From assembly GCA_016840515.1 (NCBI GenBank), contig JAEOSF010000001.1:50447-82446 (forward strand): a DNA stretch of 32,000 nucleotides. Reading direction: 5' to 3'. The stretch's first letter is position 1, and every line of letters starts with the position of its first letter. This document shows, in pieces, positions 8,265 through 23,857 of the stretch. The position numbers and the translations under genes were made by a program. The notes beneath the pieces were generated by a model that was given only the letters and a program-made list of their open reading frames with translations, did no database searches and was not told the DNA's origin. This stretch comes from Candidatus Borrarchaeum yapensis (lineage in GTDB: Archaea > Asgardarchaeota > Sifarchaeia > Borrarchaeales > Borrarchaeaceae).

Positions 8265-9458
8265 TTATCCGCGGATGCGAACCACCTCAGGGTGCGCCAT
8301 CACCCAGTTATCCCTCTCCACCATGCGTGGACCTGGGAATATCGGATTTGAAAGATTAGCCACTCCATTGACATCAGCATTGAGAACTTTATTAGCTGTT
8401 TTGCATACATATAAACCACGGTGTTTTCGACCATTTCTATGTCTTTTACCGCAAAGACTACAGGTTTGAGAGGTCCAACTTTCGTCTATCGTTTTGACAA
8501 TCATCCCAAAATTCTCGGCTGTTATGTTTAACCGATCGACAATATAGCGAAAACTCCAGAAGTTATGGATCATTGCGTTGGTTTTTTTCCCCTTATCATT
8601 ATCCACTCGGATATGGGTTAAATCACCTACCGATATTTCAGAAACACCCTTCTCATAACAGTCCTTGACGAATCGATAGATCATAGTGTTGATGCCCTGT
8701 CGAAATCTCCGTTTCCTTGTCCGATATAACTTGTTTAGTTTTTTTGTGGGCCTAGGTTTCCCTCCTAATTTCCTTTGATAGTTAGCTATTTGTTTGTTCC
8801 AATACCACCAGTCACTCAACAACGACTTCCCAGAATAGAGTTTCGCACGAGTATCACCTTCAGTATAAGTGGTGAGGACATTGATCACTCCCAGATCGAT
8901 GTACGCCTTCTTGTTTCCTAATGGTTGATGTAGAGGTGTGCACTCTACTGGTTGATAGGCATACCATCCTTTCGAGAGCATATCAAAGTGAATTTCAAGA
9001 CGTCCTTGTTTTCCATGCCAGTTTAAGTTTCCATGGTAGGTAATCGCTAATTTATTGGGCAACAAAAGCCGTCTGGCTTCAAATTTATAACAATCTGTAC
9101 GTATGAGTGACCTTAAAATTCGCTTGCCTGTTTTTCGATCTTTCCAGTAGCCAGGAGGTCTAATGACCTTGATATGAGGAGACAACTTCCCCTGCTTCTT
9201 TTTTCTTAAAAGTGCAAAAAAGGATTTCCAAGCCTCATTATTCTTGCGGATGATCTGTTGCGTTGTTGCAGAACCGATCTGAGGTGAAAAGTCCTGATAT
9301 TCTTCAGTGGTATCCCAGTCTAGAGTTCCATCGAAGAAGGATTGTCGCCGCTTAAAGGTTATTTTATTCCATAAGACAGAAGATAACGTGCATAAGGCAA
9401 ATAGTTTTGCCTCTTGATCCTCATCAGGAACTAATTTAAGGATATTAGTTCTTCTCAA
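8265..9458 (-). CDS. tnpB: TnpB (OrfB) RNA-guided nuclease-like protein
   Basis: IDLGVINVL (D188), TSQTCSLCG zinc finger, NADVNGVANL (D362). Start codon is TTG. Confidence 0.88.
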   Translation of the reverse strand: MRRTNILKLVPDEDQEAKLFALCTLSSVLWNKITFKRRQSFFDGTLDWDTTEEYQDFSPQIGSATTQQIIRKNNEAWKSFFALLRKKKQGKLSPHIKVIRPPGYWKDRKTGKRILRSLIRTDCYKFEARRLLLPNKLAITYHGNLNWHGKQGRLEIHFDMLSKGWYAYQPVECTPLHQPLGNKKAYIDLGVINVLTTYTEGDTRAKLYSGKSLLSDWWYWNKQIANYQRKLGGKPRPTKKLNKLYRTRKRRFRQGINTMIYRFVKDCYEKGVSEISVGDLTHIRVDNDKGKKTNAMIHNFWSFRYIVDRLNITAENFGMIVKTIDESWTSQTCSLCGKRHRNGRKHRGLYVCKTANKVLNADVNGVANLSNPIFPGPRMVERDNWVMAHPEVVRIRG

Positions 9459-12589: not shown

Positions 12590-13477
12590 TTATTCATTTT
12601 TTAAAAGAAATCGAGGGAATTTCATCGCACTCTTAACTCTGTTTTCAAATATGCCAAGTTCTCTGACTCCAAAGCCCATTGAAAGCCCCAAAAGTTGCGG
12701 TAGATGAAGAACGGGGATGTCATAGTCGAGTTCCCAGAGTTCTTTAACCTTGATCTGATTTAAATCGAGGCTAAGAGAGCAGAACGGGCAGATAGTTATG
12801 AGCGCCTTAAGGGCTGCATCATGCGCAGTAGATATTATACGATGTGTCAGACGCCAAGCGACATCTGGGGCATTACTTAAGACGGGGGCTCCACAGCAGG
12901 ATATTTTTCCTTCATAATCTGATGCAATTGCTCCAGTAAGATTAATGATTTCATCCATATGCAGTGGTCGTTCAGGGTCTCCGTGATGTGTAATTTCAGA
13001 GGGGCGAAGCATGTGACAACCATAGTATGCTCCAACCTTAAGTCCGTCTTTAAATGGTATTTTAAGATGTTCCTTTATTCGTGGCAGTCCAACATCCTCA
13101 TAAAGAATTTTGAGAAAATGTTTAACTTCAAGTGTGCCATTATATTCTAGGTCAAAGTCTGATAGAATATTGTTAATATCTTCCCTTGCAGCATTATCTT
13201 TCTTTAAGTATTCATTTGCATGCATGATCGAACCTACGCAGCCGTTACATAAACAGCAAATATCTAAGTCCATTTTTTCAGCTGTAGCTAAAATTCTTGC
13301 CGACAACAATGTCCAATATTGTTCGTCCATTGAACGAACAATGGGTGAACCACAACATCCCGAATTAGGGAGATCAATCAGTTCTACACCTAGTTCCTTT
13401 GCAACTACACGGGAAGAGGCTTCATACCCGTTCATTTTTTCGGGAATAGTACAGCCTAGAAAAAGCGCATACTTCAC
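12590..13477 (-). CDS. hdrB: Heterodisulfide reductase subunit B (HdrB)
   Basis: Two cysteine-rich CCG-type domains (LPNSGCCGSP, CCLCNGCVGS, YYGCHMLRP, KISCCGAP, ICPFCSLSLD); start overlaps hdrC stop. Confidence 0.9.
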   Translation of the reverse strand: MKYALFLGCTIPEKMNGYEASSRVVAKELGVELIDLPNSGCCGSPIVRSMDEQYWTLLSARILATAEKMDLDICCLCNGCVGSIMHANEYLKKDNAAREDINNILSDFDLEYNGTLEVKHFLKILYEDVGLPRIKEHLKIPFKDGLKVGAYYGCHMLRPSEITHHGDPERPLHMDEIINLTGAIASDYEGKISCCGAPVLSNAPDVAWRLTHRIISTAHDAALKALITICPFCSLSLDLNQIKVKELWELDYDIPVLHLPQLLGLSMGFGVRELGIFENRVKSAMKFPRFLLKNE

Positions 13478-14019
13478 TATTTTTCACCAGTTTCTTCTTC
13501 AGGGGGTTTATAATGGACTAATTTGGTGAATTTAATCTTTTCTGCTAGTTTTCGCATTATATCTGCGTCAGGAGTAGGCAATTCAGGGAGTTTGAAGCGA
13601 GTTTGACGTATTTTATTTTCATATTCACCCACTTCATTCATTAAGCCAAAAGTTAAGATGTTAGCCGCGATATCTGACCATACGCTAGGTATAATGTTTT
13701 CTTTCGCTGCCATGTTTCTAAGGTGAACGAAAATTTCTGGAGGTTTTACATCTTGAGGACAACGCTCCTCACATACATAACAGCCTGTACATAACCAAAT
13801 GAGCGGGTTGTGCAGTACTGCTTCTCTATCACCTAACATGATAAGCCGAATGATATTTCTCGGACTGAATTCTTCGCCACCGAACCGTGCTACAGGACAG
13901 CTACCCGTGCATGTCCCGCACTGGTAACAGGCAAAAAGGTCAAATGAAAGGTCCTCGATAAATTCCTCTGCGAGGCTCAAGTCTAGATCTGAAAGCTTCA
14001 CTACTTTTTCAGTTTCCAA
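13477..14019 (-). CDS. hdrC: Heterodisulfide reductase subunit C (HdrC)
   Basis: CYQCGTCTGSCPVARF and CTGCYVCEERCPQDVKP 4Fe-4S motifs next to HdrB. Confidence 0.9.
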   Translation of the reverse strand: METEKVVKLSDLDLSLAEEFIEDLSFDLFACYQCGTCTGSCPVARFGGEEFSPRNIIRLIMLGDREAVLHNPLIWLCTGCYVCEERCPQDVKPPEIFVHLRNMAAKENIIPSVWSDIAANILTFGLMNEVGEYENKIRQTRFKLPELPTPDADIMRKLAEKIKFTKLVHYKPPEEETGEK

Positions 14020-14022
14020 GTT

Positions 14023-14472
14023 CTATTCCTTCTTCGCTTCCTCTACTTCTTTCTTTACACGCTCAATTTCGGCCAGTTGCCATTGGACAAATTCGTTGGT
14101 GTCACCTTTCATAAGTTTTGAAAGGTCTGCCTCCAAATTAGATGGGCTAATCTTGACCATCCAACCTTCGCCGTATGGATCAGTATTGACAAGTGAGGCA
14201 TTATCCCACAACCCTTCATTGAATGCAGTAACTTCACCTGCGACTGGGGCATAAATTTTGCCTGTCCACTTGCCGCTTTCTAGTGTTCCAAAAGGTTTCA
14301 TAAACTCTACCGTCTCACCTTCAAAAGGCAATTGCACAGCCTGAATTTTTTCAGCCATGGTTTGCGCAAAATCGGTCACGCCAACCACAACAATATCTCC
14401 TTCTACTCTTGCCCAAGAATGTTCAGTTGTATAATATAATTCATCTGGGAGATCATAATCTTCAATTTTCAT
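14023..14472 (-). CDS. gcvH: GcvH-like lipoyl-carrier protein
   Basis: YTTEHSWARVEGDIVVVGVTDFAQ ... TLESGKWTGKIYAPVAGEVTAFNE matches the GcvH fold; candidate lipoyl-Lys retained in ESGK. Confidence 0.85.
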   Translation of the reverse strand: MKIEDYDLPDELYYTTEHSWARVEGDIVVVGVTDFAQTMAEKIQAVQLPFEGETVEFMKPFGTLESGKWTGKIYAPVAGEVTAFNEGLWDNASLVNTDPYGEGWMVKISPSNLEADLSKLMKGDTNEFVQWQLAEIERVKKEVEEAKKE

Positions 14473-14557
14473 TTTTACATTCTCCTTTTCAATTTATGAA
14501 ATTGTTTTTTTTCAAAGGTTATATATAAGAAGCATCCCTGCGTAGGGAGCCAGTCCT

Positions 14558-14588
14558 TCTCTCAGTCCCTAAAGGGTTTCCCGAGAGA
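14558..14588 (-). promoter_or_regulatory. Archaeal-type SECIS element
   Basis: Minus strand UCUCUCGG-GAAA-CCC-UUUA-GGG-A-CUGAGAGA. Eight-pair lower stem, GAA(A)/A asymmetric internal loop, GC-only upper stem, in the 3' UTR directly after the hdrA-vhuD stop. Confidence 0.85.
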
Positions 14589-14590
14589 GA

Positions 14591-17500
14591 TCATTCCATT
14601 TCAGTTCGAGATATACGCGACGGATTGGGTCCAAGTTTCGAAATACTTTCGCCAAAGGTTTGCATTGCTTCTCTAAATTTTTCTGCTTCCGCGGATGAAA
14701 GGAAGTACATTACAGTTCTGCCTTCACCAAAACCCATAGTTTCAAGAAGTTTTTCAGCCAACTCAACAGACTTTTCTGCTTGTAAGTTTCCATCAATATA
14801 TGCACAGTCGCCTTTGTGTCATCCGACTACGGCGACACCGTCTGCGCCGAGTGAAAACGCATTAAGCAACCATGGAGTATCAATACGACCTGTACACGGC
14901 ACCCGTATAATTCGAGTTCGATAGTCATATTGAAGTTTTGAAAGCCCAGCTAAGTCTGCAGCACCATACCCACATTTTTCACAAGCAAAAACAAGAAGTA
15001 ATGATTTTTGCTTGCTTTCAGCTAAAAGTGATTCAATTTGTGGATAGAATTGCTCATCTCGCCAGTATCGAAGTTCTCTAGCTCCAGAGGGACATGCTGC
15101 AACGCATGTGCCGCAGCCCTTGCATTCAATTTCATCAGTAACCGAAACAAGTCCTCCTGCTTCAGTTTCTTTCGTAGTTATAGCATCGTATGGACAGGCG
15201 ATTACGCACACCTTACATCCGCTACAAAGATTCTCGTCACATACAGCCTTGATTAGTTCAAGTTGAATCTCTTTTTGTTGTAACAGTACGCCTGCTGCTG
15301 ATGCCGCTGCTTTACCTAGTACTATTGAGTCGCTTATGCTTCGTGGAGAAAGAACAGACCCTGCTACGTAAACGCCATCTTTTCGTGTTTCGACAGGTTT
15401 GAATTTTATGTGGATAGGCTCAAGAAAACCATCAGAAGAGCGAGTAACTCCTGTTATCTTACACAGTTCATCAAAGCCTTCAGGAGGTTCTTGCCCTACC
15501 GCTAGGACTACATAATCTGTGTCTATCTCGAATGTAGTTCGTGAAAGGGTATCGTATACTTGCACCATAGCATTTTCATTGTAGATTGCCGTAACCATCG
15601 GGGGTCTTTCTTCTGTCCATCGCATAAAATTGGAGCGATATTGTTTTCTTGTAGTTAGATAGAACTCTTCCATATACCTTCCGACAGGTCGCAAATCCTC
15701 CTTAAAGAGGACAAAGGTTTGACAGTTCGGAAAGAGTTCTTTCACGGTCTGCGCATTTTTCAGTGAGGCACCGCAACAAACACGAGAGCAGTATTTGTTT
15801 CCATCTTCTTCTCGTGAGCCAACGCACTGAATGAAGACAACACGTTTTGGTTCTTGATCAAAACTGCGCGTTTTAAGCAATTCCTCGAATTCAAGAGAAG
15901 TTACCACTCGTGGAACAGTATTGTAACCGTATTCGCCGTCCTTGGGAGAATATGTATTTGTTCCGACAGCTATAATTATAGCGCCAACGTTAATATCAGT
16001 GTTTTCTCCATTAATTCTCCTAATTTGTGTTGTAAAATCACCGATGTGACCATCAAGGGATTCCAATGAAGACTCAAGGTAAACCGAGATATTGGGAGCA
16101 TTAGATATCTGCGCTGTTAATTCATCCAAAATTTGGCTGGCTTCAGTTTTTTCTGGAAACACTTTGTAGAGAGAATTGAGACGACCACCAAGTTGAGAAT
16201 CTTTTTCCACGAGGTGAACATTGAATCCTTGATTAGATAAATCAAGGGCAGCCGACATTCCAGCAATTCCACCACCAATAATAAGAGCTTCATTGACAAC
16301 TGAAACCGTCCGATATGGCACAATCTCAAGATGTAATGCTCGTGCAATGCCAGCCCTGATCAAGTCCTTTACTTTTTCTGTGGCTTCTTTTTTTGTCTGC
16401 ATATGAACTTGCGCTGCCTGATCTCTTATGTTCACGTATTCAAGATAATACTTACTTACTCCAGCAGACTCTAAAAGAGTCCTAAATGTTTCTTCGTGAA
16501 GTAAAGGTGAACATGCTGCTACTAAAACCCGATTAATATTGAGTTCCTTTATCATCTCGCTGATTTGCTGTTGTCCTGGCTCACTACAGAAGAACTCATT
16601 GTTATCTACATAGATCACGCCAGGTAATGTCTTTGTATATTCCATGACTTCTGGTACGTCAATGTAATTTGCGATATTGCCACCGCAGTGGCATACAAAC
16701 ACGCCAAGTCGAGACTCATCGGTAACTTCTTCCTTTGTTTGAGGCGCATATGATGTTATGTGTGGTGGAGAACCAGATAAAAGGTTCACTGCAGACGATG
16801 CAGCAGCTCTTGCTTGAGTAACCGTATCCACAGCATCTTTTGAGCCTGTTGCCACTCCCGCGATAAAGATTCCATGTCGATTTGTTTCGATTGGATGATA
16901 ACTGTTGGTTTCAAGAGGAAATCCATCACCGCTAATTTTAATGCTTAATTTTTGGCATAGTTCATGTGTCCCTTCAGATGGAACAAATGAACTAGATAAG
17001 ACAACAAGGTCGATATTTTTGACCTGAGAAACTTCTCCAGTATTAGTATCTTCAACCCAGACAATCAAGTCTTTTGTTTCTTCGTTTTCTTGAATTTCCG
17101 CCACTTTACCGCGAATTAAATTAGGATTATAGCTATTCTGTGTGTCCCTGTAGTATTCTTCGTAAAGTTTTCCTGAGGATCTTATATCTATATAGCAAAT
17201 GTCTGCCTGTCCTTTTCCTTTTGATTGCAGTTTATAGGCTCTAGCTTGTTTTAATGCGAACATACAGCAGACTCGGTTACAGAATTTGTTGCCGACTTCC
17301 TTTTCACTTCTAGAGCCCACACATTGGACCCATAATACCCTGCTTGGTTCTTTCCCATCAGAAGGTCTCACTATCTTGCCATTAGTAGGACCTGTGGGAT
17401 GCATCATTCGTTCAAACTGAAGTGATGTAACAACGTTTTCGTAGTATCCATAGCCAAATTGTTTCAATGGTGTTGGGTCGAATTCATCAAAACCCGTGGC

Positions 17501-18076
17501 TACAATTATCGAGCCAACATTGATTTCGATGATCTCTTCGGCATCAACAAAGTTTATTGCTTCCGCAGGACACTCCATCTCACACATTCCACAATCTATG
17601 CACTGCTCCTTATCTAATCTAGGGATCTGGGGGACTGCCTGAGGAAAAGGAAGATAAATTGCTTTTCGTACACCTATACCCATATCGTATTCTGAAGTCA
17701 CTTCAACTGGACATACTTCAAGGCATTTTTGACATCCTGTACATTTGTCTGAATCGACATATCTAGGGCTTTGCTTGAGTTTTACCGTAAAGCTTCCTGA
17801 TTCACCATTTACCTCTAAAACTTCGGTTAGAGTAAACAAGCGAACATTGTCGTTTCTGGCAACGCTTGACATAAGTGGTGTAAGTGGTCAAGCCGAGCAC
17901 TCATCGGTCGGAAAGATTTTGTAAACCTGTGAAAATCGTCCTCCAATTGTTTCTCGTTTCTCTACTAGAAACGCCGTATAGCCTTGATTTGCAATATCTA
18001 GCGAAGCATACATGCCAGCCATTCCGCCGCCAATCACCAAGACACTTTCTGCCGCTTTACTTTCCAATGCATTCAT
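14591..18076 (-). CDS. hdrA: Selenoprotein: duplicated HdrA module fused to a ferredoxin domain and MvhD/VhuD domain, two Sec (UGA) codons
   Basis: Continuous minus-strand frame of 1161 codons if UGA at 17888-17890 and 14819-14821 are read as Sec. Joins ORFs 17888..18076 and 14819..17872 with the untracked tail UHKGDCAYIDGNLQAEKSVELAEKLLETMGFGEGRTVMYFLSSAEAEKFREAMQTFGESISKLGPNPSRISRTEME*. SECIS present in 3' UTR; RBS AGGAGG before ATG 18076. Confidence 0.93.
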
Positions 18077-18260
18077 TTAACGAACCTCCTACTTAGTGAA
18101 CACCTCCAAACTACCATAACTTAATGTTCGGTTGCTTTTATTCAATTCTTCTTTGATAATGTCAGCGTAATGCACTTCAAAATTATAAAAAAAGGTGGGG
18201 GCAACTGATGAGCACATATATCCCTATACACTTGTAATACTTGGTTAGATATTTGTCACA

Positions 18261-19448
18261 TTAGCGATAACTGTCAACTACACCTGCTGAATAGGCAACA
18301 AGTCTTGGCAATTCTAAAACGCGAATGCGTTCTCTGTAAGCCCTCATTCCAATTGAATGATGACACGTAGGGCAAGTCGTGAGAATATATTGTACACCTA
18401 ACTTAGCTGCGTCTTTGACAATTTCATCACTTAGATCGTTTCTTAGTTCAGTGTATGGTACACGGATCGGTCCACCGCAACATCTCGCGTCTCCTTTTGT
18501 TTCTGGTAACTCAACGAACTCAATACCTGGAATACTTTCTATGATCTTCCGAGGAGGGTCGTATTTAAGTGCGTATCTCCCGAGATGGCATGGATCCTTG
18601 AAGGTAACCTTTCCCTCAAGGGGTTTCGTCATTTTTATTTTACCATCATCGATTAAACGTTCAAGCACTTCCGAAATATGATATGCTTTTGGAGTATCCG
18701 GAGAGATTGCTTTATACTCCTCATTGAAGACTGAAGCGCACATCGGACATGCTGTGATTATAGTCTCAATCCCTCGCGATTTAAAGAGTTCGATGTTTTT
18801 CTTAGCAGCTTTCTCAAAATATGGTTTGAATCCTAACCAACTAAGAAATCCTCCGCAACAACTCTCTGAATCGAACATCGTAAACTCTTCTCCAGCGGCT
18901 TTCAAGAGTTTAACTCCCGCACGTGAATTATCGGGATAATCAATAGTCCCTACACAACCAGCGTAATAGAGCGTTGAAGATTCCTTTGGTAAGGTTGCTT
19001 TTATTTCGCCAAAAACCTCGTTGAACACGACAGGATAATCCATTCCATGGGTATTTCCTTTCTCAAGAATGCTGTCAGCAATACCCCTATGCTCTGAAAG
19101 CGTATAATTGTTGTCGGCTAGATATTCACGCACGCGATCCATAACGTCTACCACTTTTATTTTTGCTGGACAGTGTTCCTCACACTTTTTGCACAATGTG
19201 CATGTGTAAAGAATTTCCATTGCATAATCATCAACGGGAAATCCTCCTTCAATGAGAGCTCGCTCTAGCATGATCCTTCCTCGACAGTTGTAACTTTCCA
19301 TCTGTGTAGCATCAAAAATCGGACATGCAAACCTACAAAATCCGCATCGTACGCATCTGTATGTTTCTGTTTCAGCATCAGCGTCAATCCTCATTTTCTT
19401 ATGTTTTGGTTTAAGCATTGTACCCGAAACTACATCTTCTTGTGTCAT
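18261..19448 (-). CDS. Fe-S oxidoreductase, GlcF/HdrD-like (2x 4Fe-4S plus 2 CCG domains)
   Basis: CVRCGFCRFACP, CTLCKKCEEHCP, YYAGCVGTIDYPDN, SESCCGGFL, FKDPCHLGRYAL, RCCGGP. Confidence 0.88.
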   Translation of the reverse strand: MTQEDVVSGTMLKPKHKKMRIDADAETETYRCVRCGFCRFACPIFDATQMESYNCRGRIMLERALIEGGFPVDDYAMEILYTCTLCKKCEEHCPAKIKVVDVMDRVREYLADNNYTLSEHRGIADSILEKGNTHGMDYPVVFNEVFGEIKATLPKESSTLYYAGCVGTIDYPDNSRAGVKLLKAAGEEFTMFDSESCCGGFLSWLGFKPYFEKAAKKNIELFKSRGIETIITACPMCASVFNEEYKAISPDTPKAYHISEVLERLIDDGKIKMTKPLEGKVTFKDPCHLGRYALKYDPPRKIIESIPGIEFVELPETKGDARCCGGPIRVPYTELRNDLSDEIVKDAAKLGVQYILTTCPTCHHSIGMRAYRERIRVLELPRLVAYSAGVVDSYR

Positions 19449-19450
19449 CT

Positions 19451-20869
19451 CTAGTCATCCTCCAAGATGTTAATTCTTTGGCCTGGAATTGGTAATACGT
19501 GACCAGGGCAGAAAATATTTTTAGGATCAAATGCATTCTTGATCTTTTTCTTTAATTCTAACACTTTAGGTTGGTGTTCAACGGGCATCATCATAAGTTT
19601 GGAAACACCAATTCCATGTTCCCCAGTGACCGTCCCTTCTAATTCAACTGCTGCATGCCACAAGTCAACTAATGTTTGTAGGGCGCGCCTATGTTCATCA
19701 GGATCTCGTTCATCCCACAAAAGTATAGGATGAAGATTTCCATCTCCTGCGTGACCGAATGTGGCAATTTCGATCCCATTCTTTTCGCTTACTCTATCAA
19801 TCTCTTGGAACATCGTCGGTAGGTTTTTTAGAGGTACTGATACGTCTTCCATTCGTGCAGTTGGCCGTCGAAGTGTTAGTGCTGGAAATGCAGCCTTTCT
19901 AGCTGCCCAGACTTGTGTACATGTTTCCAGATCTCGTGCTGTTTCGGATTTGATTGCTCCCATCTCTTTGAACAAATCTTCCAGTTTATCTAGCCGCATC
20001 TCAACGTCATCTCTATTCCCATCTAATTCCACAAGGACAACAGCTCCGCATTCGGGGAATTTTAAGGTTCCTGAATATTCTTCTACTGCCTTAAGTGTCT
20101 TGTAATCAAGAATTTCTGTTCCTGAGGGGTCAAATCCTCTTTTAATGATTTCTCTGACGCACTTTCCTGCTTCAAAAGCGGAATTGAAATAGCCACTAGC
20201 CACGAGACGGACTGCTGGCAAAGGTTGAATTTTGAGCATTGCCTTGGTAATAATACCCAGAGTCCCTTCTGATCCTACAAAAAGTGAAACAAGATCGTAG
20301 CCACAAACAAATTTAATTGCTTTATTGCCGATATTAACGACACTCCCATCTGATAGGACGATTTCCAAGCCCATAACCCACTCTTCGGTGACTCCATATT
20401 TAAGTGCACGAATTCCGCCGCTATTATTATTTACCATACCGCCAATTGTAGCTGTTTTGTCCGATGCTGGATCCGGCGGAAAGTAAAATCCATAGGGCTC
20501 TAAGTAGGTATTGAGGTCTAGACACACCATACCAGGCTCAACGGTTATTAGAAAGTTCTCAACATCGAGATCTACAACCTTGTTCATCCTTGCGACCACC
20601 AAAATCAAACAATCAGGCTTTGCAGGGATGACACCCCCGCTAACGTTGCTTCCAGCCCCTCTTGGAATAATTGAGAATCCTTCTTCATTAGCTAGCTTCA
20701 CGATATCTGCGACCTCTTCTGTGGTATTAGCAAAGGCCACGGCTGCTGGCATACCTGTATCAATGCTAGCATCGCGTGAGTAAATATACAGATCGATTGC
20801 ATGATTTAAAACATTGTTTTCTCCAACTATTTTTTTCAGGGCGGGAATGATTGTGCCCTGCCAATCCAA
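19451..20869 (-). CDS. glcD: FAD-linked oxidase, glycolate/D-lactate dehydrogenase GlcD-like
   Basis: FSIIPRGAGSNVSGG, FPPDPAS..ATIGGMVNNNSGG, GSEGTLGIITKA, EHGIGVSK. Confidence 0.9.
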   Translation of the reverse strand: MDWQGTIIPALKKIVGENNVLNHAIDLYIYSRDASIDTGMPAAVAFANTTEEVADIVKLANEEGFSIIPRGAGSNVSGGVIPAKPDCLILVVARMNKVVDLDVENFLITVEPGMVCLDLNTYLEPYGFYFPPDPASDKTATIGGMVNNNSGGIRALKYGVTEEWVMGLEIVLSDGSVVNIGNKAIKFVCGYDLVSLFVGSEGTLGIITKAMLKIQPLPAVRLVASGYFNSAFEAGKCVREIIKRGFDPSGTEILDYKTLKAVEEYSGTLKFPECGAVVLVELDGNRDDVEMRLDKLEDLFKEMGAIKSETARDLETCTQVWAARKAAFPALTLRRPTARMEDVSVPLKNLPTMFQEIDRVSEKNGIEIATFGHAGDGNLHPILLWDERDPDEHRRALQTLVDLWHAAVELEGTVTGEHGIGVSKLMMMPVEHQPKVLELKKKIKNAFDPKNIFCPGHVLPIPGQRINILEDD

Positions 20870-22144: not shown

Positions 22145-23857
22145 ATGCCTAAAATGCAAGTAGCGGAAGTTATAGTAAAAATTCTTGAAGATGAAGGAGT
22201 AACAGCAATGTTTGGTATACCGGGCGCAGCAATAAATCCCGTCTACAAATACCTTGGGCAAACAACAAAAATTAAGCACTATATTGCTCGACATGAAGAA
22301 GGAGCATGCCATGCAGCTGACGGATATGCACGAGCAACTGGAAAAGTTGGCGTCTGTATCTGTACAAGCGGACCTGCAGCGACAAATTTTGTAACAGGTC
22401 TCTATACTGCTCAAGTTGACTCTATCCCAATTGTCGCAATTACTGGGACAGCAACGAGAGCAGTATTGGGTCAAGAGGCGTTTCAAGCGGTTGACATAGC
22501 AGAAATAGTTAAACCAGTGACTAAGAAAAGTTATTGTGTTAGGGAGCCTTATCGCCTCCCAGGTACTATGAGGGAAGCTTTTCGAATCGCTAGAGAAGGA
22601 AGACCCGGACCAGTGCTTATTGATCTCCCCGTTGACCTCCAGAGAACAGAAATTGAATATGATCCAGAAACAGATCGTAGTTTAGACTTTTCGACACCCA
22701 AAGCAAATGAAAAACAAATCAAGAAAGCAATTGATATGATCTTGGAAGCTAAGAATCCAATCATCTTAGCCGGAGGAGGAGTCATTATTTCGGGCGCTTC
22801 CAAAGAACTCCAAGAATTAGCAGAATATTTAAGTTTACCCATCTGTGCTAGTTACATGGGAAAGAGTGCTCTTGACACTAATCATCCATTATACGCGGGA
22901 CTAGTCGGTACCATCATGCAAACAAGACTTGGCAACAAATTATTCTTAGAGAGCGATCTTGTTCTAGCGGTTGGTGCCAGATTTGTTGACCGTCATACGG
23001 GTAAACTAGATGTTTACACGAAAGACAGAAAATTCATCCACATTGACATTGATCCTCTACAAATTGGCAAGATCGTCCCCACAGAGTTAGGAATTGTATC
23101 AGATGCCAAAGTAGCACTACAAATGATGATCGATCAAGCCAAAGCTCGAAATGCAAAAGTAATGCCAAATGAATGGGTATCGTCTATACCTGCCCGACGT
23201 AAAGAGCTTGCGAGAAGATTAGACTTTGATAATGTGCCAATCAAACCTCAAAGACTTTTCAAAGAAATAAATGAATTCTTTGATGATGACACAATTTTTG
23301 TGACGTCAGTCGGACTTAATCAGATTTGGAGCGGTCAATATCAAGAAATAAAGAAACCAGGACATTACAAGGTCTGTGGATGCGCGGGAACGTTGGGTTG
23401 GGATTTACCAGCTTCGATTGGGGCTAAAGTCGGATACGAGGAAATGGGAATGCCTGAAAAGAAGGTCGTAGGCATCACAGGAGATGGCGGATTAGGATTC
23501 ATGGTAGAAGAATTAGCGATGGCGGCCCACTATCAAACTCCAATAGTTATGCTGGTGCTTAACAATGGCTTCTTGAGCTTGATTAGACAAAACCAGAGCA
23601 TCGTTTATGACTATGAATATGCGGTAGATCTTACATACGATACAAATAAGCTTGAAAAACATGGAATAGGAATAGATTTCGTTAAGCTTGCAGAAGCTTT
23701 TGGACTATACGCTGAACGAGTCGAAAAACCTGAAGATCTAAAGGCTGCTTTCCAGAGAGGCCTAGATAACGCCCCAGCGGTATTAGATATTATATGTGAA
23801 CGTGAAACTAATTGTAGTATGGGGTTAGCTCTGGACGCTATAGCTGAAAGAGGATAA
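22145..23857 (+). CDS. gcl: Thiamine-diphosphate enzyme, glyoxylate carboligase (tartronate-semialdehyde synthase)-like
   Basis: FGIPGAAINPVYK, EAFQAVDIAEIVKPVTK, RHTGKLDVYTKDRKFIHIDIDPLQIGK, FDNVPIKPQR, NNGFLSLIRQNQ, CERETNCSMGLALD closely resemble E. coli Gcl signatures. Confidence 0.78.
   Translation: MPKMQVAEVIVKILEDEGVTAMFGIPGAAINPVYKYLGQTTKIKHYIARHEEGACHAADGYARATGKVGVCICTSGPAATNFVTGLYTAQVDSIPIVAITGTATRAVLGQEAFQAVDIAEIVKPVTKKSYCVREPYRLPGTMREAFRIAREGRPGPVLIDLPVDLQRTEIEYDPETDRSLDFSTPKANEKQIKKAIDMILEAKNPIILAGGGVIISGASKELQELAEYLSLPICASYMGKSALDTNHPLYAGLVGTIMQTRLGNKLFLESDLVLAVGARFVDRHTGKLDVYTKDRKFIHIDIDPLQIGKIVPTELGIVSDAKVALQMMIDQAKARNAKVMPNEWVSSIPARRKELARRLDFDNVPIKPQRLFKEINEFFDDDTIFVTSVGLNQIWSGQYQEIKKPGHYKVCGCAGTLGWDLPASIGAKVGYEEMGMPEKKVVGITGDGGLGFMVEELAMAAHYQTPIVMLVLNNGFLSLIRQNQSIVYDYEYAVDLTYDTNKLEKHGIGIDFVKLAEAFGLYAERVEKPEDLKAAFQRGLDNAPAVLDIICERETNCSMGLALDAIAERG

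Follow-up and report, generated by a model that had tools for sequence, protein, structure and literature searches.

A 32,000-nucleotide (nt) stretch of the genome of Candidatus Borrarchaeum yapensis (contig JAEOSF010000001.1 of assembly GCA_016840515.1, positions 50,447 to 82,446), hereafter the window, contains on its minus strand a gene for a fused HdrA-HdrA-MvhD (FlpD) protein whose reading frame is interrupted by two UGA codons, and a compact RNA hairpin lies at the stop codon of this gene. A first-pass annotation, made from the letters of the window and a list of its open reading frames (ORFs), had taken this hairpin for a selenocysteine insertion sequence (SECIS) of the archaeal layout. 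In this report, we characterize the gene and the hairpin, compare them with orthologous and paralogous loci of other Asgard archaea, and weigh the reading of the hairpin as a SECIS that would direct the incorporation of selenocysteine (Sec) at both UGA codons. All positions refer to the window unless a locus is named.

A fused hdrA-hdrA-mvhD gene and the hairpin at its stop codon

The fusion gene occupies 14591–18076 (minus strand; 1161 codons), from an ATG at 18076 to a UGA stop codon at 14593-14591, as delineated by its translation, its Pfam matches and its closest homologues, which are Asgard proteins. The predicted protein comprises two Rossmann/flavin adenine dinucleotide HdrA-type regions, Fer4 ferredoxin clusters and, at its C terminus, an MvhD/FlpD domain (FlpD, 1.8e-43). 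Its closest relative, locus L001 (contig JAHQJS010000006.1 of GCA_019057385.1), is 90% identical and has the same gene order; this assembly is labelled Sifarchaeia, and several selenoproteins are listed for it in the supplement of Huang et al. 2024 (PMC11227280).

The first of the two in-frame UGA codons, UGA1 (17888–17890, minus strand), lies at the HdrA site within the motif FPTDECSA-U-PLTP, and its counterpart in homologues is a cysteine (...DCS(I/M/A)C..., as judged from the homologue consensus and from full-length Cys forms); it is kept as UGA in L001, L002, L003, L084 and L085. The second, UGA2 (14819–14821, minus strand), lies at the MvhD/VhuD site within the motif VVG-U-HKGDC, where homologues carry the cysteine of GCHxGDC; it is kept as UGA in 10 of 10 orthologous loci, and the same site is also UGA in Helarchaeota vhuD. 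Both are predicted Sec codons, for residues U63 and U1086 of the protein: they are conserved wherever the orthologue region is present while the codons that flank them diverge, and the reading frame and its domains run on across both. They are separated by 3069 nt (17890-17888 and 14821-14819), which bears out the spacing of more than 3 kb given in the first-pass annotation, and lie 3294 and 225 nt upstream of the element described below. An internal UGA is absent from every other gene in the window. Among the 27 window ORFs, 17 end in TAA, seven in TAG and three in TGA, one of the last being the fusion gene itself; because UGA still stops two other genes and no other gene has an internal UGA, the codon is not reassigned. 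Both methanogens and Lokiarchaeota are described as having Sec in HdrA and VhuD (PMC4989117), and for Sifarchaeia, tRNASec, SelB and the enzymes of Sec synthesis are reported, along with HdrA, MvhD and Prx as selenoproteins (PMC9723677).

The hairpin was accurately described at the outset. From 14588 to 14558, the minus strand reads UCUCUCGG GAAA CCC UUUA GGG A CUGAGAGA, which folds into a stem of 8 bp topped by an internal loop (GAAA/A), a ministem of three G-C pairs and the loop UUUA; the minimum free energy and centroid structures of ViennaRNA both return this fold, and a descriptor scan (below) finds it. In its minus-strand context (...GAA AUG GAA UGA UC UCUCUCGG GAAA CCC UUUA GGG A CUGAGAGA AG GAC UGG CUCCCU ACGC AGGGAUGC UUCUUAUAUAUAACC...), the 8-bp stem begins 2 nt past the stop codon, exactly as stated, and beyond its eight contiguous pairs the helix can be prolonged with U.G and C.A to 10 positions, one of them a mismatch. 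The extended helix directly abuts an AUGA on its 5' side and GA-C on its 3' side. On the basis of the sequence, the fold, our own scans, orthologue conservation and other Asgard lineages, we delimit the complete predicted SECIS to 14553–14594 (minus strand). From 5' to 3', it consists of the AUGA of the 5' core (14594-14591), the 5' helix strand UCUCUCUCGG (14590-14581), GAAA as the 5' side of the internal loop (14580-14577), the 5' ministem strand CCC (14576-14574), the apical loop UUUA (14573-14570), the 3' ministem strand GGG (14569-14567), a single A as the 3' side of the internal loop (14566), the 3' helix strand CUGAGAGAAG (14565-14556) and the GA of the 3' core (14555-14554), followed by C (14553). 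The pairs that close the helix below the internal loop are G-U and G-C. As the sequence and its translation show, the UGA stop codon (14591–14593) is contained in the AUGA core, and a stem that starts 2 nt after the stop is therefore to be expected and not odd.

Two elements of the first description hold in part. The internal loop is asymmetric, GAAA against A, but its 5' side has 4 nt and is not the canonical GAA; and the apex matches the methanogen layout, but the host is an Asgard archaeon, and the AUGA/GA core and two helix positions had been overlooked.

Taken by itself, the stability of the fold stands out only moderately (z = -2.0 over 81 nt, where 10 of 200 shuffled sequences were as stable, and z = -2.8 for the 41-nt element). 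The combination of motifs is far beyond chance. A strict archaeal-SECIS descriptor, which asks for a basal helix with no fewer than 7 pairs in a row, the internal loop GAA(A)/A, three successive G-C pairs and 3-8 nt in the apical loop, gave one match over both strands of the window, at the 14588-14558 element, and none in 100 dinucleotide shuffles of the window. In 1.07 Mb of loci from many genomes, the same descriptor gave 11 matches, all of them (11/11) at the orthologous element. Neither the descriptor scans nor a scan for AUGA-helix-GA found another SECIS-like element in the ORF, in the 5' untranslated region (UTR) or near the gene. Since it is the sole SECIS-like element there, it would serve both UGA codons, as the first-pass annotation had supposed; there is a precedent in Lokiarchaeota (PMC4989117), and the arrangement is an extension of it and not an anomaly. 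Two candidates were rejected. A GUGA...GA hairpin at 17583-17544, within the ORF and 300 nt past UGA1, is not retained in the orthologue of 90% identity; and for bacterial-type SECIS elements after the UGA codons, the 63 nt past each fold at z -1.1 to +1.3, with structures that differ among orthologues.

Conservation in orthologues and in other Asgard loci

Orthologous 3' ends (L001/L002, L003, L084-L087 and L096-L099) were collected by a protein-based metagenome scan and by exact-protein look-ups; the encoded proteins are 69-97% identical, and a 75-amino-acid search for further post-UGA2 fragments returned only two close relatives. Across the distinct orthologue variants, the RNA is nearly invariant from GGAAUGA through the end of a second hairpin (described below), whereas its neighbours, that is the last codons and the spacer before gcvH, diverge, as does the apical loop (UUUA, UUUC, AAU or AUC, 3-4 nt). 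No orthologue departs from the GAAA, the CCC/GGG, the 3' A or the GA-C. The L003-type reading frames end at a UAA 8 nt upstream, and yet these orthologues retain the AUGA, which accordingly belongs to the element and is not merely a stop codon. The dinucleotide that follows it varies (UC, AU or UU), and UU, as in L087 (0 mismatches), produces a perfect 10-bp helix, while one C-G pair of the helix is U-G in orthologues. In the supplement of Huang et al. 2024, apart from its SECIS tables, neither the gene nor the SECIS sequence was found.

Equivalent elements were sought in other Asgard hdrA/vhuD loci. With the GCA_019057385 FrhD from Huang's supplement as query, we obtained a paralogous Sifarchaeia hdrA/frhD locus (L088-L091 and L100-L104), whose FrhD shares about 95% identity with the one that Huang 2024 gives for GCA_019057385 and whose UGA codons lie in hdrA (FPTDDCSI-U-ILAPK) and in frhD (ACNK-U-GYP). 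The stop region of this frhD reads gaAUGA CUCUUGAAAC GUAAACAUUGUG GUUUCAAGAA GAC. Past the UGA-containing vhuD of Helarchaeota, we found AUGA AUAUUCAGAG AUAAAGUUGAGU CUCUGAAUAU GAC in L093 and AUGA CUGUUCAGA(C) UUAAAGAGCUG (C)UCUGAAUAG GAC in L105. The window element, the paralogue (L088/L091/L100), L093 and L105 have in common the AUGA, a helix of 9-10 positions, an AAA 12-13 nt past the AUGA and the GAC; the A-rich loop starts with GUAAA, AUAAA or UUAAA in the other lineages and with GAAA in the window, and the helix sequences of the other lineages are unrelated to that of the window. In a helix-only alignment constructed from six distinct sequences, 93% of the cells are paired versus 69% in shuffles, both sides have changed in 7/10 pairs, and slid registers pair at 38-56%. 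The element of the Sifarchaeia paralogue is without a GAA_A loop closed by G-C pairs. Because the paralogue is expected in the same kind of genome with the same machinery, the AUGA/GA and the As, which it has in common with the window element, appear to be the more likely determinants of recognition.

Loci of the Cys type behaved differently. An HdrA-alignment search of genome contigs yielded listed matches that were mostly Cys-type HdrA from bacteria and other archaea, and the Asgard loci among those listed, all of the Cys type, served as negative controls; an AUGA-helix-GA scan of the gene strand found no such element in the Cys-type Asgard loci L004, L007, L010, L031, L039, L092 and L095.

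The position of Sec within MvhD also differs between the paralogues. The frhD of the paralogous Sifarchaeia locus (L088 2884-5365) has Sec at ACNK-U-GYP and Cys at the VVGCHKGEC site, and the window gene has the opposite arrangement, with Cys at FACEKCGY and Sec at VVG-U-HKGDC; by this comparison of sequences, the paralogues of this lineage are predicted to place Sec at different MvhD cysteines.

Our data suggest, with a probability that we put at roughly 0.88, that this Asgard (Sifarchaeia-like) hdrA-hdrA-mvhD selenoprotein gene has its SECIS at 14594-14553 (minus strand) and that this one element serves both UGA codons. The hairpin, at and just past the stop codon on the mRNA, would recruit the archaeal Sec elongation factor (SelB/EFsec) with Sec-tRNA(Sec), either directly or via an adaptor, and ribosomes at UGA1 and UGA2 would insert Sec rather than terminate. 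A ribosome at the final UGA would already have melted the helix, and termination would take place there, in line with the minimal-distance argument of Mariotti et al. (PMC4989117) for a terminating stop UGA. The sequences show the anatomy, position, uniqueness and conservation of the element, the conservation of both UGA codons and equivalent elements in related loci, and from these we infer Sec insertion, the set of motifs read by the machinery and the discrimination of the stop codon.

Several results weigh against this reading. No Rfam family matched the window at its gathering score, eukaryotic SECIS_1 (RF00031) included, and at E<=10 the search of 14400-14700 returned noise only (small nucleolar RNA and riboswitch fragments); no archaeal SECIS family was among the Rfam search results. 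Two covariance models that we built from other Asgard lineages only, R1 with 4 sequences and R2 with 5, align the element correctly, yet its score of 6.8 bits is below the best random window match of 16-17 bits; judged by the criterion of the first-pass annotation, such a score would count against the SECIS. This background score counts only lightly against it, because the models draw on only 2-3 lineages with mutually similar stems and a shorter apical region. The top match of R1/R2 (23251-23290, plus strand; AAGA CUUUUCAAAG ...AAA... CUUUGAUGAU GAC; 16-17 bits, E about 0.15) is within a thiamine pyrophosphate-enzyme ORF, has no AUGA and two mispairs, and is probably a chance match. Loose descriptors are non-specific: Huang's eaSECIS-like pattern has 17 matches in the window versus 23 in shuffles, and the type II pattern with AUGA has 60 versus 59, and agreement with them is therefore not evidence. 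There is no compensatory double change within the orthologue clade; as the element is almost invariant there, the covariation check that had been advised turns out to be uninformative rather than negative. The covariation across lineages is partly circular, two of the elements having come from a scan that requires pairing. Finally, the 5' side of the loop is GAAA instead of GAA, and neither a tRNA nor a gene of the Sec machinery is encoded in the window.

The second hairpin, alternative explanations and neighbouring genes

The hairpin at the stop codon had been called the only structural element of the 3' UTR, which proved incorrect, since a second conserved hairpin follows directly downstream. 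Supported by folds and by conservation, it spans 14527–14557 (minus strand) with the core CUCCCU-ACGC-AGGGA at 14549-14535, and it is formed by the sequence directly past the GAC of the SECIS (UGG CUCCCU ACGC AGGGAUGC). An invariant CCCU/AGGG stem with a GCA-containing loop is found past the SECIS in four lineages, despite fully diverged SECIS helices; its counterparts are at 5366-5392 in L088, 2715-2735 in L091, 6589-6605 in L093 and about 6047-6065 in L105. The window clade has ACGC in the loop, the Sifarchaeia paralogue AAACGCAA or UAGAAUGCA, L093 CGCAA and L105 UGCAC. By chance, 0.03 occurrences of the motif would be expected per window. Matches to it in Thermoplasmata and bacterial loci were discarded as GC-rich coding sequence. 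The hairpin fits a terminator-like pattern with a U-rich tail, and it could be either an accessory SECIS module (for example, a helix I substitute or a protein-binding site) or a 3'-end/terminator hairpin; we did not find it described in the literature that we examined. Directly past it is TTATATATAA (14528-14519, minus strand), conserved in orthologues as TTATATA(T/C)A, and an AAGGAG site occurs about 8 nt before the gcvH ATG (14472). Within this region (14473-14528, minus strand), the TATA-like box and the ribosome-binding site look archaeal and would give gcvH-hdrC-hdrB a promoter of its own.

Such a transcript boundary bears on one of the alternatives to the SECIS reading, according to which the hairpin, by itself or jointly with the second, does no more than form the 3' end of the transcript, terminate it or stabilize it between hdrA-mvhD and gcvH, recoding being directed in some other way. 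The terminator-like second hairpin with its U-rich tail, the TATA-like TTATATATAA and GGAG site for gcvH after it, and the modest z-scores of the folds speak for this explanation. However, a terminator needs no invariant AUGA, GA, GAAA and G-C ministem beside a varying loop, an AUGA-helix-GA frame built on other helices is also found after the Sec-containing vhuD genes of other lineages, the Cys-type Asgard loci gave no such element in the scan of their gene strand, and no alternative SECIS is present in the gene, past the UGA codons or in the 5' UTR; we consider a mere 3'-end structure very unlikely. Still less credible, to the point of being negligible, is that the UGA codons are not Sec codons at all, and that we are dealing with a pseudogene, with three ORFs or with some other readthrough or reassignment. 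Gene callers do split the gene at the UGA codons into ORFs of 62, 1017 and 56-60 amino acids in all public records (NCBI, ENA and JGI; L001, L003 and L096), yet both codons are conserved amid diverging neighbours and replace catalytic or cluster-proximal cysteines of HdrA and MvhD, for which Sec is reported in methanogens and Lokiarchaeota (PMC4989117), and the frame and domains continue across both in a window where no other gene is UGA-interrupted. The public records would thus mis-annotate one predicted 1161-residue selenoprotein as three ORFs.

The likeliest of the alternatives, although we hold it to be improbable too, is the one proposed in the first-pass annotation, a purely methanogen-type SECIS, in which the machinery would read the kink-turn-like GAA/A loop and the G-C clamps, and the AUGA/GA would be incidental, the AUGA being just the stop codon. 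The apex fits the methanogen consensus and the Methanococcus maripaludis fruA element (GG-GAA-CC-UUAAU-GG-A-CC; PMC9622424, PMC11881835), its GAAA, CCC/GGG and 3' A do not vary among the orthologues, and a lokiarchaeal SECIS without the GAA/A motif was inactive in M. maripaludis, yielding 21 mU/mg in the bla reporter against a background of 22 mU/mg with no SECIS, which indicates that this motif can be decisive in some archaea. Against this stand the retention of AUGA where a UAA 8 nt upstream is the stop codon, the invariant GA-C and, on the 5' side of the loop, GAAA in place of GAA. Moreover, the Sifarchaeia paralogue, with its AUGA, 10 bp, GUAAA... and GAC and no G-C-closed GAA_A, would need the same machinery.

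The fusion gene belongs to a cluster at 12590-20869 (minus strand) that encodes a GlcD/D-lactate-dehydrogenase-like oxidase, an HdrD-like protein, the HdrA-HdrA-MvhD protein with its two predicted Sec residues, a GcvH-like protein, HdrC and HdrB; the oxidase and HdrD-like genes are upstream of the fusion gene, and those for GcvH, HdrC and HdrB are downstream. A GcvH protein of the lipoyl-carrier type is thus encoded inside an hdr cluster, which calls to mind the lipoate-binding proteins known from bacterial sHdr systems. Elsewhere, the window carries the archaeal markers L15e and the RNase P proteins Pop5 and p30. A gene of the TnpB/IS605 OrfB type (8265-9458, minus strand; Pfam OrfB_IS605 and a Cas12f1-like TNB domain) lies between a methyltransferase and a glycosyltransferase gene; contig L001, although syntenic, has no such gene there, which suggests a recent insertion.

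Relation to known SECIS types

Much of what we describe belongs to a pattern already published, namely an Asgard SECIS, a stop codon inside the AUGA and one SECIS for distant hdrA and vhuD UGA codons. Asgard SECIS elements have been described as eukaryote-like, with an AUGA, a stem, an A-rich loop and a GA, often overlapped by the UGA stop codon (PMC4989117, PMC11227280). In Lokiarchaeota, stop UGAs overlap the AUGA, and according to Mariotti et al. one SECIS downstream of vhuD would serve both hdrA and vhuD over about 2 kb, with up to 6 UGA codons (PMC4989117); in Sifarchaeia hdrA/frhD SECIS elements, the loop begins with G[U/G]AAA (PMC11227280). The window element resembles these elements (the lokiSECIS of Mariotti 2016 and the type I/II elements of Huang 2024, including those of Sifarchaeia/Borrarchaeales hdrA/frhD) in the AUGA 5' and GA 3' of its helix, in the unpaired As that open the apical region, where a 9-bp reading gives GGAAA and fits G[U/G]AAA, and in its location at or overlapping the stop codon, as one element past the MvhD/VhuD part that is shared with the hdrA UGA. 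Its helix of 10 positions with 1 mismatch falls within the type II range (7-15 bp, at most 2 mismatches), as does its apex, with a ministem of 3 bp (2-8 bp), a bulge of 5 nt, that is 4+1 (4-12), and a loop of 3-4 nt (2-6 nt). It departs from the strict Loki geometry of a 9-bp stem, an 11-nt loop and a final G, since it has 10 positions and a 15-nt apical region that ends in A. A further difference lies in the gene: whereas the Loki SECIS spans about 2 kb, hdrA and mvhD are fused here, and both UGA codons are in one cistron 3069 nt apart. On the reading proposed here, one archaeal SECIS would act farther than known so far, on two UGA codons 3.07 kb apart in one ORF, the farther of them 3.3 kb off; according to reporter work in Methanococcus, a SECIS placed immediately behind the ORF is functional and distance is not strictly limited (PMC9622424).

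The similarity to eukaryotic type II SECIS elements (RF00031) lies in the AUGA...GA quartet, the helix of about 10 bp, the bulged As below a ministem and the service of several UGA codons at a distance. Unlike the eukaryotic elements, the window element has no helix I below the core, its helix II and apex are much shorter, and RF00031 gives no match. No SBP2 is known in archaea (PMC4989117, PMC11227280), an archaeal SelB failed to bind its cognate SECIS (PMC11881835), and opinions differ on how the methanogen design relates to that of eukaryotes (PMC4989117, PMC11227280). An element that naturally combines both motif sets in one small hairpin would be a handy test object for SECIS recognition. 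Specialists may find three details of interest, namely a composite core in an Asgard archaeon, two UGA codons 3.07 kb apart in a fused ORF and the conserved companion hairpin.

Methanogen SECIS elements consist of a basal helix of about 10 bp, a GAA/A loop, 2-3 G-C pairs and a non-conserved loop of 4-8 nt (PMC9622424, PMC4989117), and the two As of their internal loop are functionally essential (PMC11881835). The window loop is GAAA/A, with one extra 5' A that is invariant in orthologues and with both essential As present; the apical loop has 3 nt in two orthologue variants, one below the methanogen range. The M. maripaludis fruA SECIS, GGUCUUGGAAAGG-GAA-CC-UUAAU-GG-A-CCUUGAAAGAC (Peiter et al. 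2025 supplement), has the same order of parts as the window element, and the two share G-rich closing pairs, a GAA../A loop, a G-C clamp, a short A/U-rich non-conserved loop and a location in the 3' UTR near the ORF. The window element differs from it in the extra loop A, in closing pairs that are G-C and G-U instead of two G-C, and in its conserved AUGA/GA flanks.

The closest likeness, taken from published descriptions and not from an alignment, is to the vhuD (frhD)/hdrA SECIS elements of Methanococcales and Methanopyrus (Mariotti 2016 Fig. 4B; Huang 2024), which belong to the same gene family and show the same composite of an AUGA, a helix of about 10 bp, GAA_A, about 3 G-C pairs, a variable loop and GAC/AAC. 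The window element is distinguished from these by its host, its closest relatives being Asgard and not Methanococcales or Methanopyrus, and by GAAA instead of GAA; in addition, theirs have a short basal stem formed by the flanks, whereas here the 5' flank is coding and a separate hairpin comes after. It likewise departs from other Asgard elements in its G-C ministem and GAA(A)/A apex, features that are rare there according to Huang 2024 and never accompany AUGA_GA. In that study, AUGA_GA was not found in the Asgard eaSECIS-like structures, which are mostly without consecutive G-C pairs, and the GAA_A/S-S features were placed as arising in methanogens, after horizontal transfer (PMC11227280). 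From its sequence and predicted fold, we assign the window element to the known eukaryote-like Asgard type II kind, with an apex that would also form a methanogen-style, kink-turn-like loop. We tentatively speculate, as a possibility that we regard as less probable than its opposite, that one Asgard SECIS may carry a complete eukaryote-like core (AUGA...GA) together with a near-complete methanogen core (GAA(A)/A and three G-C pairs). If this composite is real and functional, the features that it combines either pre-existed in Asgard hdrA/vhuD SECIS elements, as a donor-like intermediate, or were transferred back.

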